A stretch of DNA of 63,580 bases, filler included, from Globobulimina sp. (Eukaryota): NCBI GenBank assembly GCA_003354225.1. It is 48 parts of 48 records of this genome, joined end to end, with 100 filler letters (N's around TTAATTAATTAA, not from the genome) between each part and the next. Parts side by side here need not be neighbours in the genome. Positions count along the whole stretch, not along the records: positions 9,294 to 10,520 come from PIVH01020558.1; 47 more parts are not named here. One strand, 5' to 3'. Positions 7,967-62,710 of the stretch are shown piece by piece (position 1 is the first letter of the stretch; every line of letters starts with the position of its first letter). The position numbers and the translations under genes were made by a program. The notes under the pieces were generated by a model that saw only the letters and a program-made list of their open reading frames with translations, was not told the origin of the DNA and ran no database searches.

Positions 7967-9193
7967 AAAATCCAATCTCTGCTAGAAGTGACTGAAAAGG
8001 TGACATGCTTTCGAATGTTTAACCTCCGAACTTAGTTGACCCCAGTCAATTGTTAGCAGATTTATTTTGTTCGGCTGCAGCTGGTTTATCCTGTTTTGCG
8101 TCTGGAAGACCCTGTGGTTTTGCCATTTATTATTGTTTTAATTGTAATTAACAGTTTTGATCGAATCTGCTGATTGTTTTATACGTAACGTCAATGAGAT
8201 ATTGTGTAGCTAAATTGACGTCTTGATTGGCGGCAGTTAGCGCGTCCACAACGTCGTGATGTTAGTAGCCAGCACAGACAGCAGTCACAGAGTGATGGAC
8301 AGAATTTAAAATTTGATTATGCAAAAGCAAAACGTTGCGTACAAGACATCAATTTGGGCTTTAGCTGGAAGCGTTCTAAAAAGTGATTCACGTCCCTTCG
8401 AAACATTTATCAAGATATACATATCCAAAAATTCATTTCAAAATTACCTCTTACATTAAATTATTATACTCATAAACACCCATAAAAAGCATGGGGATTC
8501 CATAACACAGCATAATATATATAGCCTTGCATGTTATATAATTGTTTGTTTGATATTTTATGAAAAATATATATGTTTTTTTTTATATAAAATTGCAAAA
8601 GTATAACAGAAACACAAACAAAAAACAGAAATTAAAAATAATAAAATCATTAAAATGTGATGATTGGGATTGGAACCCAAATCTTATTTAAATATATGCT
8701 TTCCTTAAGCTATCATCACAATAAATTAGACGCCGTACATTATCTATTTATCGTTTTGTTTGTGTGATTGGTAATAATTTATTGCCACTAAAATCTCATT
8801 ATAAACTCATTTTTTGCTTTACTGTGGCTGTTGATTTTTGGAGCATGTGTATCATAGCAGAGGCTTTTATTTTAATTATTACTTTAATCCATAAAATTAT
8901 ATACCTTTTAATCCATTCCAATATGCTCCACACGACGTATAATAACTATATATACTATTTTATTTTTTATTTTTATTGCAAAATCGCCTGTTGTTTTTGA
9001 GACTGCTTTTAAACTAAGATAGCATATGCTTATGTTTCATAAATGTTTCGTATGTAAACCGCTATCGTAGTTTAAAAATCCAATCTCTGCTAGAAGTGAC
9101 TGAAAAGGTGACATGCTTTCGAATGTTTAACCTCCGAACTTAGTTGACCCCAGTCAATTGTTAGCAGATTTATTTTGTTCGGCTGCAGCTGGT
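7967..9193. repeat. Contig with an exact 119-bp terminal direct repeat: 1108-bp circular or tandem unit, non-coding
   Basis: 7967-8085 is identical to 9075-9193. Confidence 0.92.
8656..8720 (-). ncRNA. tRNA-like element without a proper anticodon arm
   Basis: TGTGATGA-TA-GCTTAAGGAAAGC-ATATATTTAAATA-AGAT-TTGGG TTCCAAT CCCAA-TCATCACA: 8-bp acceptor stem, D arm and 5-bp T arm. Confidence 0.7.
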
Positions 9194-9772
9194 NNNNNNN
9201 NNNNNNNNNNNNNNNNNNNNNNNNNNNNNNNNNNNNNTTAATTAATTAANNNNNNNNNNNNNNNNNNNNNNNNNNNNNNNNNNNNNNNNNNNNAAGGAAT
9301 GCATGGGGAGAATTTACATGACTTTGGTTTAAGGTATCAAGAGGAATTAGGCCCAGATGCATTCGAACAAAGCAATTGGAAACGTATTCAAAGAAATAAG
9401 ATTATGGCGCCTTCCTGGCTGAGCATTTGCCGGCACAAATAGGCACAGCATAAAAACAGGTTGCAGACACGCCGAGTCTTGAATAAATGTATGGGCTACT
9501 AAACTGTAGGGGGTAATAGAGGAAGACGAGGCGACTTAGTTACGAGTACAGGAAGTGGGCATGTTGGCACAAAAGCTAACCAACCATGCACGCTTCCACA
9601 AATAACTTTTTCACAGTATTAGGTATCACCGTAGCGTCAAGTAACCTTTACTAAGACTACCCATGAAGTAATCGTTTTTTACAGACAAAGCATTGCAATC
9701 AGTTCAGTTGAGAAATGATGAAGATAAAGGTATACCAGGTGAACACATTTGGACAACGTAACATAATATTTT

Positions 9773-10096
9773 AGTGACATACATCGTGCTCTGTATAAAT
9801 TATGAAGTTCAACTACAAGCATCGTTTGCGTCAACTTCACTTAAACGATAACAGCGCGTTCTACGGCCAAAGTAACTTAAACTTCAATGTGCATTGAGTG
9901 ACATACACCGTGCTCTGTATAAATTATGAAGTTCAACTACAAGCATCGTTTGCGTCAACTTAACTTAAACGATAAGTAGACGTTGTATGCCTTAAGTCAC
10001 CACAACTTTGTTGTGCTTTGAGTGTTATACAAGCTGTCAAGTACTACTAAAAGCATCGGTTGCGTCATCTTTACTAAAACGACTACGGCGCGTTCT
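9773..10096 (+). repeat. 124-bp tandem repeat, two good copies and one degenerate copy
   Basis: GTGCTCTGTATAAATTATGAAGTTCAACTACAAGCATCGTTTGCGTCAAC starts at 9786 and 9910. Confidence 0.9.
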
Positions 10097-10248
10097 TTGT
10101 AATCGTTAATCTGGTATCAAACCAACCTGTATGTCCTTTGCACGTATTCTTCTTTCCACAATTTACACCCTATAAGTTATCACCATTGTGTCAAGTTATT
10201 GGCATTTACTTAGTCATTTTTATTCCTTTGAGTACTTAGGTAAGAAGC

Positions 10249-10333
10249 CTGGCAGGTTGTCTACTGACGAGGTCCCCCTGTCCAGTGCTCTGTATCAGGT
10301 CTAGATAATTAATGGACCGAAACCTGATTCAGA
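10249..10333 (+). ncRNA. Hammerhead ribozyme with non-circularly permuted strand order
   Basis: Core CUGACGA 10264-10270, GAAA 10319-10322, GUC 10299-10301. Stem I 10257-63/10302-08; stem II 10271-75/10314-18; stem III 10322-28/10294-10300. Confidence 0.85.
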
Positions 10334-10436
10334 TAGGAGTAAAATTGCCTTATATAGTTGTACTGGGACGGATTTCCATCATTTTTTTAAAATATAGCCT
10401 TTTTATTTGTTTTTCACTTAATATAATTTTATTACA

Positions 10437-10520
10437 TACAGGGTGGTCCACCTAAAAGTGTCGATTTCATTCTTTTATAACTTTTCTAATTTTCAACGAA
10501 AGTTAATGAAATTTTCACAC
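10437..10520 (+). mobile_element. Probable left end of a Tc1/mariner-family element
   Basis: TA-CAGGGTGGTCCA terminus, then truncated by the contig end. Confidence 0.5.
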
Positions 10521-10620
10521 NNNNNNNNNNNNNNNNNNNNNNNNNNNNNNNNNNNNNNNNNNNNTTAATTAATTAANNNNNNNNNNNNNNNNNNNNNNNN
10601 NNNNNNNNNNNNNNNNNNNN

Positions 10621-11761
10621 ATTCTCAGCAACGCGACCATTCGAACAGATTAGTATTGATATCGTCGGACCATTGCCGACCACCGATGACGGATTCAAAT
10701 ATATGGTAACTATGATTGACAAGTTTAGTCGCTTGTGTATGATACAAGCAGTAAAGGAGACAGACACTCCGACCATAATACGAGCATTGGAGCGTTGGTA
10801 CTGTACATACGGACCACCAGACGCTATATTATCCGATAACGGGTCCCAGTTTCTATCAAAGATATATCAACATTACCAAAACACAAATAAGACAGACATA
10901 AAGTACATAACTGCGTATCATCCGGAATGCAATGGGCAAATTGAACGGCTCCATAGATGGATAAAAGAGAGGCTCGCGATGCTCGCATATGACTTAGGAC
11001 TGCAATTCGCTGTTGGTGCTGCGTACCAATGTGATAACTGGGCGCATTATTTGCCAATAATACAATATAAATACAATACCACCATAAATAGAATGACTTC
11101 GTATACTCCATACAATATAATATTCGGTATGGACACAAATGACATAAAAAAGATAAAATTCGATCCCAAATCGCCCGAATCATATAAAAAATACATGGCA
11201 GCACGGATACACATAATACGAAATACAGCAAATGAGAAGCAACGAAAATATGATACCGTACGAAAACGTTCCTATGATAAACGTTCCCGTAATATACGAA
11301 TAAGGAAAGGTGATAAAATACGTTATGACGCCTCGCAAAGCTGGAATAAGAGCGAGAAGTCATTAATAGCAAACTACGTGGGACCGTATGTGGTATTAGA
11401 TACATTGAATAATAATAAAACGCTCCATATTCAAGATATTGACAAAATATATGATCCATTCTGGACCGATGTAATGTATTGTAAACCGCATATGGATGAT
11501 GATGAGAGCCCAACGGATGTGTTGTTGACTCATTATGTACATGATATAAATCAGATTGATATGAATTTGAATGTGAACAAACCAAATAAACGACAATTAG
11601 ATAGATTGCATGGCGCATTGTATTATAATAAGTTATTCTTCGCGTATGCATGCAATCCGTTGTTACAAATTAATAATAGACCGAATAGCGAAGCGTTTAT
11701 GAATATGATTAATATGGATTCGATGGAATCGACTATGACTGACTGTGAATTAATTGATTGA
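10621..11761 (+). mobile_element. Ty3/Gypsy-type LTR retrotransposon integrase, 5'-truncated
   Basis: IDIVGPLP, IDKFSR, SDNGSQF and AYHPECNGQIER (DDE core), plus a GPY motif. Confidence 0.93.
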
Positions 11762-29198: not shown

Positions 29199-30367
29199 TC
29201 GATTAAAATACCCAATAAACGGCGGTATAATAAATAACTGGAATGATATGATTCAACTATGGCAACATTTGCATAACAATATATTACAAGTCAACACCTC
29301 CAATCATCCAATTTTAATCACGGAAGTACCGAAGAATCCAATCTCAAACAGAATACGAATGACACAGATTTATTTGGAATATTTCAACTCGCCCTCCATT
29401 TATTTTATATCCCCAAACATTCTTGCTTTGTTAAGTGCTTTTTGCTTTTCTTTTTTATGTCCAATGAGTGCGAGGATCGGATGCAATATATATCAGATAT
29501 GCCACCGGTCGCTTATCCGGCTGTGTCTTTGACAGTGGTTTTGGTGTCACCTCATGTGTGCCCATCATCGATGGCTATTCCATACCAAATGCAATCACCA
29601 GGATGGACATTGGCGGTTATAATATCACCAAATACCTAAGCAAAATATTAACAAAATATGGGGATTATAATTTTAAAACTTCGTCAGAGTTACAAACAGT
29701 TCGCATCATCAAAGAGAAGGAATGCATCTTAGCAAATGCGTCAGTGGACACAATGGTAAATCCCGCATATCACAGTACGGGGATAATGGGCATAAATAGC
29801 TCAACGAATGGCAATTTATTGTCGAATAAGTTATCTTCGTTATCGGGCAAATTGGGCAGTTCTTTCCAGACGTTAGGACTATCAAAGAGTGGCTCCACGG
29901 GATCAAAGAGTGACAATTCGCCGCAATACACCTTGCCGGATGGCACGATCTTAGGTATTGGCAATACGCACGAAAGAGCGGCGGAAATATTGTTCCATCC
30001 CGAATTGATTGGTTATACCAAATGTCGCGGGATACAGTATTTATTGTTAAATTGCATTCGAAAATGTGATGTGAAGCAAAGGAATAAGTTATATGATTCT
30101 ATATATTTAACCGGCGGTAATTGTAATATTAAAAATTTTGGACAGAGATTGGTGAATGAATTAAAGAAAAAGGTTTATGATAAAAAAAATAATAAAAATA
30201 TTAAGATAAAGTCACATGTTGTTACCAAAGCAAATGAGAAACATTTAATCCCATTTATAGGCGGTACTTTACTTGCTTCTAATTCGCTATTTCAACAATT
30301 AGCTATTACAAAGGAACAATTTGATGAGTATGGTGCAAGTGTATTGTTTAGAAGATCTTTGTGTTGA
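29199..30367 (+). CDS. Actin-related protein with a Ser/Gly-rich insertion, intron 29430-29496, 5'-truncated
   Basis: LKYPI..G.I.NWNDM, HPILITE, spliced LALYATGR, DSGFGVT, YTLPDG, FIGGTLLAS. Confidence 0.92.
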
Positions 30368-30525
30368 CTCTGGTTTTTTTTTTATAGTGTCGTGTCATTT
30401 CAAAAAACGCTTTTTCGGTCGATCANNNNNNNNNNNNNNNNNNNNNNNNNNNNNNNNNNNNNNNNNNNNTTAATTAATTAANNNNNNNNNNNNNNNNNNN
30501 NNNNNNNNNNNNNNNNNNNNNNNNN

Positions 30526-30751: not shown

Positions 30752-31312
30752 TATTGATTTATTAATAAATTAAAGTAAAATGGAATATATTATAATATTA
30801 ATATGAATATGAAAGAGATTGATGTTGTTTTTGGTGAAGAAATGACAATTGCAAATACATGACATATTATATCATAATTCCCAATATGTTGCTCGTCAAT
30901 AATTAGAAACGAATTTCTATTTTAGTGGTCACATCAATCACAACTCGCTAAGTTGCATTTGGTGTCTCATTTGAATTAATATTGCAATTGAATCCATTCT
31001 CAATGACATCATCATTGAATCATATCATATCATATCATATCAAGTCGATTGTACATCCTTCAATTGATAAACTATCCACTGATTCCACTCCATAATTTAA
31101 CAAATATAATTTAGCGCCAACACCAACATTTGTTATATTTAGATCCAGATCAAAGTGACTTGAAAGTGTGCTATCTGATGTACATGACATGGAGGGTATG
31201 TGCCATGTTTTTGATTGTCATGTGATCAGCAAAAATCCATAATGTATACAGATACTAAGCATACAAATCATTTACTAGTAATTCTCAAATTGAATAATAT
31301 AATATTCTGAAA

Positions 31313-31337
31313 TTGGTGGTGTTGAAAAACACCTGGT
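31313..31337 (-). promoter_or_regulatory. Histone mRNA 3' stem-loop
   Basis: ACCA-GGTGTT-TTTC-AACACC-ACCAA about 45 nt after the H2A stop: 6-bp stem, 4-nt loop, ACCA tail. Confidence 0.85.
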
Positions 31338-31380
31338 AAAAAATAAAATAATTATATACAAAAAAAATTAAATGCTGATT

Positions 31381-61096: not shown

Positions 61097-61592
61097 CAGA
61101 CATGCGCATGCCCCAGTACCAGCCCAGTACTGGTACTGGGCTGGAGCAAAAAAGTACTGGGCTGGTACTGGGCAAAAATCTTGGAAACTGCCAACTTTTT
61201 CCCTTTTTTGAGAAAAAGGTTAAAAATAATGAAAAAAGCCAGATTTCACTCTGCTACAGTAAATTTCGCACCTCAGAATTTCGATTTTCGCTAAAGTTTT
61301 GGCCTTCGGCCAAATTCCACTCCACTATAGTAAATTTTCCATTTCGAAACTGTGATTTTCGCAAACGTCTGGCCTTCAGCCTTAAAACTGACAATTTTGA
61401 CTATCTATGTAATGACTGCAATAAATGATTTTTTTCCTTTGTAGGCTGAAATATGGCCGATTTTTAATGTTATTTTAAAAAAAATTCTTAGTACTGGGCA
61501 AGTACTGGGCAAAACGTGAAAGTACTGGGCTGGTACTGGGCAAAAAAATTGCAAAATGGTACTGGGTAGGAAAAATTTGGTGCGCATGTCTG
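61097..61592. mobile_element. hAT-like MITE, 496 bp
   Basis: 12-bp TIR CAGACATGCGCA/TGCGCATGTCTG and many subterminal GTACTGGG motifs; no target-site duplication seen. Confidence 0.75.
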
Positions 61593-62710
61593 GCCGTATC
61601 CATCCATACCCGTGGCTCTTATATTTTTATTTTTGAAAGAATAATAAACAATACAGCTTTTAATGATGAAAATCTTTATCCAAAACAGCAATATACAACT
61701 TTTACATTATGAACATACAATGATTATTGTCGCATAAAACGCACATTATTACATTACCACCAAAGAACAACATTTACTAATCACTACTTTCAGCATCATC
61801 ATCATCACCCTCCCCATCATCACTACTACCATAATCCTCATCTTGACGAACAGAAATGAATCTGATTAATGCATTGCCTTTTGACAGAGAAACTGACACA
61901 CGATCATCTCTTTCTTCATCCTCATCATCATGAAACTCAACTTTGATGTCAGCCACTTGACAGGAATTAGTAAGAGCTGATTTGAATGCATCAAAATTAG
62001 GCAAAATTAAATTATATACCACTATTTCACGAGGGAACAATTCAGATTGAGCGACATTCAAGAAACTAACCATGTTGGTCAATAACTAAAAATAGAAAAA
62101 TGTAGTACAAGCATGCGTCGTAGGGGGTTTGGAGGGGGTTTTACCCCCAACCGGGCAAAATGACCAAACCCACCCCTGGCGAGAAATCTGGGGGCTATTT
62201 TTGGGCCTTCTGGAGGATTTTTGGTCAAAAACTGTCATTTTTTGGTAGAAAATCNNNNNNNNNNNNNNNNNNNNNNNNNNNNNNNNNNNNNNNNNNNNTT
62301 AATTAATTAANNNNNNNNNNNNNNNNNNNNNNNNNNNNNNNNNNNNNNNNNNNNATTGTATTTGCAAATATTCATAAAGGAAATGAATGGATTACTCAAG
62401 ATTTAAATAATGGACATTTGGATTGGTATTTCTTTTCCATTGCTTTATTTATGATTTTCGCGTGGATATTCTTTTTGTGTCACGCAAAAAAATATAAATA
62501 TAATAATTATAATTATTCACAACAAAATAATAATGAATCCTGTACAAAACGACAGCAATCAATTGGAAACTCCGTTGATTATACTGCTGACTGACATAAT
62601 TAGTTTAATATATACTATTACAACTAAAACTGGAGCATTCCAACACTGGACCAGCAGTAATGAAGACCCACAAAGAATTTCATGTCGAAAAAACTTTTAA
62701 AATAAAACAA

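Follow-up and report, generated by a model that had tools for sequence, protein, structure and literature searches.

Can the core of a hammerhead ribozyme be built from strands that follow one another in a scrambled order, outside the three cyclic arrangements of the classical types, and does eukaryote-like genomic DNA carry such a ribozyme? This question is raised by positions 10249-10333 (plus strand) of a 63,580-nt stretch of DNA from Globobulimina sp. (assembly GCA_003354225.1), which was analysed as a whole and is referred to here as the window. The segment holds every invariant nucleotide of the hammerhead core, and the strands enclosing this core come in the order designated C-S-G. On the combined analysis of its architecture, of a diverged second copy from that sample, and of relatives in public metagenomes, we consider it likely that the segment represents a genuine, selected type-CSG hammerhead that would cleave itself at the predicted site. 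The class has been known since 2023, and the present sequence adds to it a member of a very rare kind.

In the scheme of Eckert, Friedrich, Weinberg & Weinberg (Nucleic Acids Res 2023; PMC10085705), the hammerhead is divided into three blocks, namely Block C (stem I, CUGANGA, stem II), Block G (stem II, GAAA, stem III), and Block S (stem III, cleavage site, stem I), and types I, II, and III represent the cyclic orders CGS, GSC, and SCG. The same paper was the first to show the non-circular permutation of an RNA fold and reports many type-SGC ribozymes, two similar type-CSG ribozymes, and one doubtful type-GCS ribozyme, the type-CSG examples coming from metagenomes only, i.e. from DNA, and the type-SGC examples from metatranscriptomes. 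Both type-CSG RNAs (CSG-1 and CSG-2) cleave in vitro at the expected site, yielding products of 48/49 and 29 nt, and in type-SGC and type-CSG alike, stems I and II are described as connected by a further helix. The evidence for type-CSG is rated weaker there than that for type-SGC, with few covariation events and what is termed 'modest covariation'. The preliminary description of the locus had stated that natural non-circular hammerheads had recently been reported, and this paper confirms the statement; full-text searches yielded no other primary report of non-circularly permuted hammerheads, and two further papers (PMC13725137 and PMC10761166) cite Eckert et al. only.

Architecture of the motif

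The window was scanned on both strands with a descriptor that accepts any of six block orders and requires at least 4 bp in stem II, at least 5 bp in stem III, and at least 5 bp in stem I. A single match was obtained, at 10249-10333, and it was classed as CSG, with CUGA at 10264, C17 at 10301, and GAAA at 10319. This order is non-cyclic, each of the three stems crossing the other two, as had been claimed in the preliminary description, in which the strand order was given as A-C-B (the C-S-G of Eckert et al. 2023) and the fold as fully pseudoknotted. The core elements named there (CUGACGA, GAAA, and GUC) are all read at the positions assigned to them, and the three stems and the extension of stem III pair as proposed. 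A fourth helix, between 10249-10256 and 10277-10285, had been suggested more cautiously; this helix, called helix IV here, forms 8 bp and turns out to be the one best supported by covariation. Altogether, all 31 of the pairs proposed for helices I, II, III with its extension, and IV are standard (Table 1), and no open reading frame (ORF) covers the ribozyme.

It had also been anticipated that standard models would miss the motif, and they do. The Rfam hammerhead families gave no match at gathering thresholds, none at E<=10 on 10249-10333 and its surroundings (9800-10800), and none over the whole window at E<=1. Such a miss is expected, because the models describe nested three-way junctions and the motif is a non-circular permutation.

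Table 1. Features of the candidate ribozyme and of the unit that contains it, with positions along the window
Feature	Position	Strand	Remarks
Helix IV, 5' strand	10249-10256	+	directly 5' of stem I; pairs with 10277-10285
Stem I, 5' strand	10257-10263	+	7 bp with 10302-10308, including one G.U
Core box CUGACGA (C3-A9)	10264-10270	+	read directly; flanked by stem I and stem II strands, with no inserted nucleotide
Stem II, 5' strand	10271-10275	+	5 bp with 10314-10318; a G-C pair adjoins the core
Helix IV, 3' strand	10277-10285	+	T10281 bulged; one nucleotide past the stem II strand
Stem III extension, 5' strand	10289-10292	+	4 bp with 10330-10333, beyond a T.T mismatch
Stem III, 5' strand	10294-10300	+	7 bp with 10322-10328
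Cleavage triplet GUC	10299-10301	+	NUH; stem I begins at 10302; U10300 pairs with A10322
C17, predicted cleavage C10301/U10302	10301	+	placed by analogy with hammerheads
Stem I, 3' strand	10302-10308	+	pairs with 10257-10263
Linker TTAAT, 5 nt	10309-10313	+	connects the far ends of stems I and II
Stem II, 3' strand	10314-10318	+	pairs with 10271-10275; alternative partner 10298-10303
Core box GAAA (G12-A15.1)	10319-10322	+	between stems II and III; A15.1-U16.1 pair is A10322-U10300
Stem III, 3' strand, and extension	10322-10328 and 10330-10333	+	7 bp and 4 bp
Repeated unit of ~210 nt	10227-10440	+	~22-nt leader, ribozyme, A+T-rich tail of ~105 nt; from contig ends in run X1 (see below)

A diverged copy in the same sample

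The stretch is found in a single public sequencing run, X1, in which 65% of the sampled words of the ribozyme-bearing piece are present; none of the listed runs that contain it is recorded as RNA. When X1 contigs were aligned to 10100-10520 at 80% likeness, 23 contigs matched, 8 of which were listed; no contig of runs X2 or X3 matched this interval at the same likeness. One listed contig (record 4) is the window's own copy, its sole difference being 10309 T>C in the linker, and this linker change occurs in at least two X1 contigs (records 3 and 4).

Record 3, a diverged copy, covers 10251-10440 and departs from the window by 16 substitutions and 7 gap letters. Within 10251-10333 it differs from the window at five positions, none of which lies in the core. 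The change 10281 T>A affects the bulged nucleotide of helix IV and is the only one in the 3' strand of that helix, 10306 T>C converts the G.U pair of stem I into G-C, and the two changes 10297 A>G and 10325 T>C jointly replace an A-U pair of stem III with G-C in a compensatory manner; the fifth is the linker change 10309 T>C. When five substitutions were placed at random in 10251-10333, the core and every pair survived in 0.24% of 200,000 trials. The tail of the same copy (107 nt) carries 11 substitutions as well as insertions and deletions. Collecting homologues from the reads had been proposed as a check on the motif; this second copy keeps the core and shows the compensatory pair in stem III.

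Relatives in public collections

The pattern used to scan public collections constrained no more than CUGANGA, the sequence of stem II, and GAAAC. It gave 11 matches among metagenome contigs and 5 among prokaryote genome contigs, making 16 loci in total (100.8 kb); among viral contigs there were none with this pattern and none with a second, looser one. The descriptor, applied to the 16 loci with minima of 4 bp in stem II, 4 bp in stem III, and 3 bp in stem I, recognized a full hammerhead architecture in four of them, three being of the CSG order (L006, L008, and L001) and one of type I (L002). The other 12 loci, including all 5 prokaryote matches, showed no hammerhead architecture.

L006 and L008 are metagenome contigs that are near-identical to each other, and their likeness to the window is confined to 10256-10324 (74-75% over 77 nt). 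In both, GUC, stems I and III, and helix IV are placed as in the window, with an 8-bp helix IV directly 5' of a 7-nt stem I strand and with one nucleotide separating stem II from the 3' strand of helix IV. The spacing between the cleavage site and the start of the 3' strand of stem II, 12 nt in the window, is the same in L006 and L008 and amounts to 9 nt in L001.

Base pairs were counted from anchored coordinates, and MAFFT alignments, which misplaced the 3' strand of helix IV, were left unused. Counted in this way, all eight pairs of helix IV form in L006/L008 when the offset is the homologous one, against at most 6 at each of the 27 other registers, and four of the eight pairs are doubly changed relative to the window with pairing kept. 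In stem III, two of the seven pairs are doubly compensated and the outermost pair is lost in L006/L008; stem I, given a bulge in its 3' strand, shows one doubly compensated pair and one conversion of G.U to G-C. Stem II is invariant across the lineages and, having been fixed by the pattern, is uninformative for covariation. Stems I and III covary among the window, the second X1 copy, and L006/L008.

The remaining two loci stand further apart. L001:789-858 (minus strand) is a compact, G+C-richer type-CSG candidate on a 5-kb metagenome contig, with a stem I of 6 bp (two G.U), stems II and III of 5 bp each, and a helix IV of 8 bp (three G.U) at offset +1. It is situated directly after an ORF of 100 aa, and the ORFs of the contig have no Pfam matches. 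The hammerhead at L002:868-950 (plus strand) belongs to the classical type I; its stem II carries a long insertion, and its minimal stem III is palindromic, a form known from animal retroelements.

Fold and proposed cleavage

The motif would consist of two hairpins whose loops pair with each other. In hairpin A, helix IV would close a 20-nt loop made up of the 5' strand of stem I, CUGACGA, the 5' strand of stem II, and one C; in hairpin B, stem III would close a 21-nt loop made up of C17, the 3' strand of stem I, the 5-nt linker, the 3' strand of stem II, and GAA. Pairing of the two loops, with 7 bp in stem I and 5 bp in stem II, would then generate the usual core, with helix IV spanning the far ends of stems I and II and holding them together. 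The RNA is predicted to cut itself between C10301 and U10302, so that the 5' piece would end in a 2',3'-cyclic phosphate and the 3' piece would begin with a 5'-OH. As the cleavage products would stay joined by all three stems (19 bp, or 23 bp with the extension), slow release and easy re-ligation would be expected.

Calculated duplex energies amount to -10.5 kcal/mol for helix IV, -13.5 kcal/mol for stem III with its extension, -7.1 kcal/mol for stem II, and -4.1 kcal/mol for stem I. The scaffold formed by helices IV and III has -20.1 kcal/mol, and the best nested fold of the 85-mer has -25.6 kcal/mol. In these model calculations, the energies of the proposed fold appear plausible. Although blind to pseudoknots, the minimum free energy (MFE) folds of both the window and L006 contain helix IV along with the outer portion of stem III.

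Chance expectation and competing readings

The frequency of such motifs in random sequence was estimated from 2.96 Gb of simulated sequence with the base composition of the window and with independent letters, dinucleotides not being preserved. This simulation gave 2032 matches with all stems of at least 4 bp, 282 matches with stem II of at least 4 bp and stems III and I of at least 5 bp (~0.011 expected per window), and 2 matches, in any order, at the observed quality of at least 5 bp in stem II, 7 bp in stem III, and 7 bp in stem I (~8e-5 per window). A partial pattern, CTGANGAGGTCC-N25-55-GGACCGAAAC, had a single match in the window and none in any of 100 shuffles. For this single window, a chance origin of the core is very unlikely.

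Several points weigh against the interpretation as an active, selected type-CSG hammerhead. Taken alone, the core is insufficient over the ~250,000 windows scanned, and the decision therefore rests on the relatives. Among these, L001, L006, and L008 were bound by the search pattern to have a conserved core and stem II, which carries no evidential weight, and the covariation comes from few lineages, namely the window, the second X1 copy, the near-identical L006/L008, and L001. The stem I of L006/L008 reaches 7 bp only with one bulged nucleotide in the 3' strand and otherwise has 3 contiguous pairs; this bulge is the weakest point of the comparison. In the window, stem I is A-U rich, contains one G.U, and is weak at -4.1 kcal/mol. 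A competing nested hairpin (10298-10303/10313-10318, -6.4 kcal/mol) buries the cleavage site and takes the 3' strand of stem II, and it is preferred in the MFE folds of the window, L006, and L001. The same hairpin can form in L006, L008, and L001, i.e. in all CSG lineages considered here; it may act as an off-state, and we suggest that it may also contribute to the slow rates reported for type-CSG, 0.004 and 0.026 per min (PMC10085705). Lastly, the putative role of the ribozyme in a mobile or repeated unit is read from contig ends only.

These points have to be set against what the other readings can explain. If the motif were a product of chance, A+T-rich eukaryotic sequence would have happened to combine the hammerhead boxes with runs that complement one another, all in a scrambled order. 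Random sequence does yield such cores, a few of this quality being expected over ~250,000 windows, and helix IV was spotted post hoc; its freedom of offset and bulge lowers its weight, so that it adds just one or two orders of magnitude. Yet L006 and L008 repeat the whole architecture with compensatory changes in all variable helices, and the diverged copy from the same sample is altered at structure-neutral positions only, an outcome with the low random frequency given above (0.24%). The doubt left by the chance estimate is removed by these two observations, and the chance reading is close to refuted. A different possibility is that the RNA is derived from a hammerhead and still structured, or is a decaying relic, with a fold that is, or until recently was, conserved, and no longer cleaves usefully; it might be trapped in the competing nested structure, or have taken on a structural or protein-binding role. 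The presence of the competing hairpin in every lineage, the weakness of stem I, and the low published rates of type-CSG (PMC10085705) would all fit such a relic. Against it, every core position is intact in the window, the second X1 copy, L006, L008, and L001, and a conserved core, in addition to conserved helices, is what catalysis would demand; both published type-CSG RNAs are, moreover, active (PMC10085705). We regard the relic as unlikely.

The ribozyme might instead work in trans or as a dimer, hairpin A of one transcript docking on hairpin B of another copy's transcript. The predicted active fold is indeed a loop-loop complex of two independently folding hairpins, and several copies occur in the same sample. 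Minimal type I hammerheads of animal retroelements act as dimers, and L002, from the same collection, shows the palindromic stem III of that type. This arrangement is nevertheless quite improbable, given that hairpins A and B are just 3 nt apart on one strand, that the 12-nt spacing between cleavage site and stem II is kept in the window, L006, and L008, which favours intramolecular folding, and that CSG-1 and CSG-2 cleave as single transcripts (PMC10085705). An intramolecular, self-cleaving type-CSG hammerhead is the reading followed below.

Relation to known hammerhead systems

The closest counterparts are CSG-1 and CSG-2, with which the present motif shares the block order C-S-G, the full core, mutually crossing stems I-III, a predicted cut after the H of NUH, an extra helix that ties stems I and II together, and an origin in DNA (PMC10085705). 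It differs from them in dimensions and in setting. The fragment sizes of CSG-1 and CSG-2 imply a compact RNA resembling L001, whereas the segment between the first nucleotide of helix IV and the cut measures 53 nt in the window, 59 nt in L006/L008, and 42 nt in L001; and the present motif lies in eukaryote-like, repeat-rich DNA, within a multi-copy unit of ~210 nt. Type-SGC ribozymes (the HRIMA-1 motif and its variants) resemble the present motif in being non-circularly permuted with a pseudoknotted core, and all four of their helices have been found necessary by mutation (PMC10085705). They differ in the order S-G-C and in having been recovered almost exclusively from metatranscriptomes, where circular RNA agents presumably carry them, rather than from DNA. 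With the window, the second X1 copy, and L006/L008, independent support is provided for all four helices, especially for the bridge between stems I and II.

Classical hammerheads of types I, II, and III are found in eukaryotic repeats, including retrozymes, Penelope-like elements, and satellite and short interspersed nuclear element (SINE)-like elements. They have the same core as the present motif and, like it, occur in short multi-copy non-coding elements, in their case of animal genomes. In contrast to it, they form nested three-way junctions in cyclic orders, usually lie in tandem arrays or pseudo-long terminal repeats (pseudo-LTRs), and are detectable with Rfam; here there is no Rfam match, no tandem unit in the 1.2-kb piece, and the cut would fall in the middle of the ribozyme. 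Assignment to an animal non-LTR retrozyme or a hammerhead satellite was considered and set aside, no tandem arrangement being found as far as the short contigs show.

The repeated unit

Ahead of 10227 and beyond 10435 and 10440, the matching X1 contigs pass into sequence unlike that of the window, record 3 doing so after 10440. L006 and L008 are 86.7% identical over 210 nt, from ~15 nt before helix IV to ~97 nt past the ribozyme, with nothing shared beyond. The divergent flanks in both lineages indicate that the ribozyme is the 5' module of a multi-copy unit of ~210 nt. Across lineages (window versus L006/L008), conservation is confined to the ribozyme, the likeness of the tails being weak and driven by A+T content, and the complete unit contains no ORF and does not fold in any unusual way (z = -0.48). 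One copy only was found in the 1227-nt piece and in the window, and one each in L006 and L008, with no tandem copies of the unit in any of them. A tRNA-like promoter was sought with ARAGORN over 7967-10520, and nothing was found. The best reading is that of a short dispersed non-coding element whose transcripts would be processed by the ribozyme.

As far as the searched literature goes, this is the first placement of a type-CSG ribozyme in eukaryote-like genomic DNA within a repeated unit. It is possible, as a tentative extension, that type-CSG ribozymes serve as the catalytic module of ~210-nt dispersed non-coding elements in animal genomes, where the topology might be used for reversible cleavage and ligation or for cutting in trans. 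If so, these elements would constitute a class of ribozyme-bearing repeats distinct from retrozymes and Penelope-like elements, with RNA circularisation as one conceivable use. The locus opens to experiment the cellular use of such a topology and the manner in which a scrambled order arises. For genome annotation, it indicates that RNAs of this kind are overlooked by standard hammerhead models.

Some further features adjoin the unit. X1 depth is nil at 10205-10219, and two flank contigs leave the window sequence after 10198, so that this run does not bear out the join of the upstream flank to the unit; nothing is drawn from this. A second repeat family starts at 10436 and fills the remainder of the piece (to 10520); at least three X1 contigs begin to match there, with unlike sequence before that point, and its terminal letters are reminiscent of Tc1/mariner inverted repeats. 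A 14-nt inverted repeat at 10121-10134/10434-10447 was considered as the possible mark of a miniature inverted-repeat transposable element (MITE); it does not extend and was treated as chance.

Sequence context of the locus

The window consists of 48 pieces of 1226-1228 nt separated by spacers of the form N44-TTAATTAATTAA-N44, and adjacent pieces are not genomic neighbours. The ribozyme lies within the piece 9294-10520, and its true context is therefore just ~1.2 kb. The pieces have a G+C content of ~31% and encode domains of a reverse transcriptase, an integrase, a P450, an actin-like protein, MAT1, and a dual-specificity phosphatase. In the piece 29199-30425, the frame of an actin-like gene is broken at ~29400-29470 by a short intron-like segment, an argument for genomic DNA rather than cDNA as the nature of the pieces. 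Two window proteins have eukaryotic look-alikes in the Atlas, those of the STYXL1-like protein being animal; these are leads only. Overall, the pieces look like eukaryotic, probably animal, genomic DNA.

Two RNA matches occur elsewhere in the window. A histone 3' untranslated region stem-loop at 31293-31338 (minus strand) scores 29.3 bits in Rfam, below the threshold of 34. A tRNA match at 8656-8719 (minus strand), in another piece than the ribozyme, reached 49.8 bits in the E-value mode of Rfam, the gathering score being 29; it was not listed by the Rfam run in gathering mode, and ARAGORN reported no tRNA in 7967-10520. The match may reflect either a tRNA-derived repeat or some effect of filtering.

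Within the ribozyme-bearing piece, a small ORF at 9296-9439 has no Pfam match. A 124-nt tandem repeat with two copies and a degenerate third occupies 9770-10096, ~150 nt upstream of the ribozyme, and contains no ribozyme itself; an 11-mer found in it at 9786 and 9910 recurs at the ribozyme junction, at 10285. L006 likewise has a tandem repeat (~70 nt) situated ~75 nt upstream of its ribozyme. Finally, L008:402-515 is 71% alike over 106 nt (E=4e-6) to window positions 61446-61593, a low-complexity repeat in another piece, a likeness that could be a hint of related hosts or a compositional effect.

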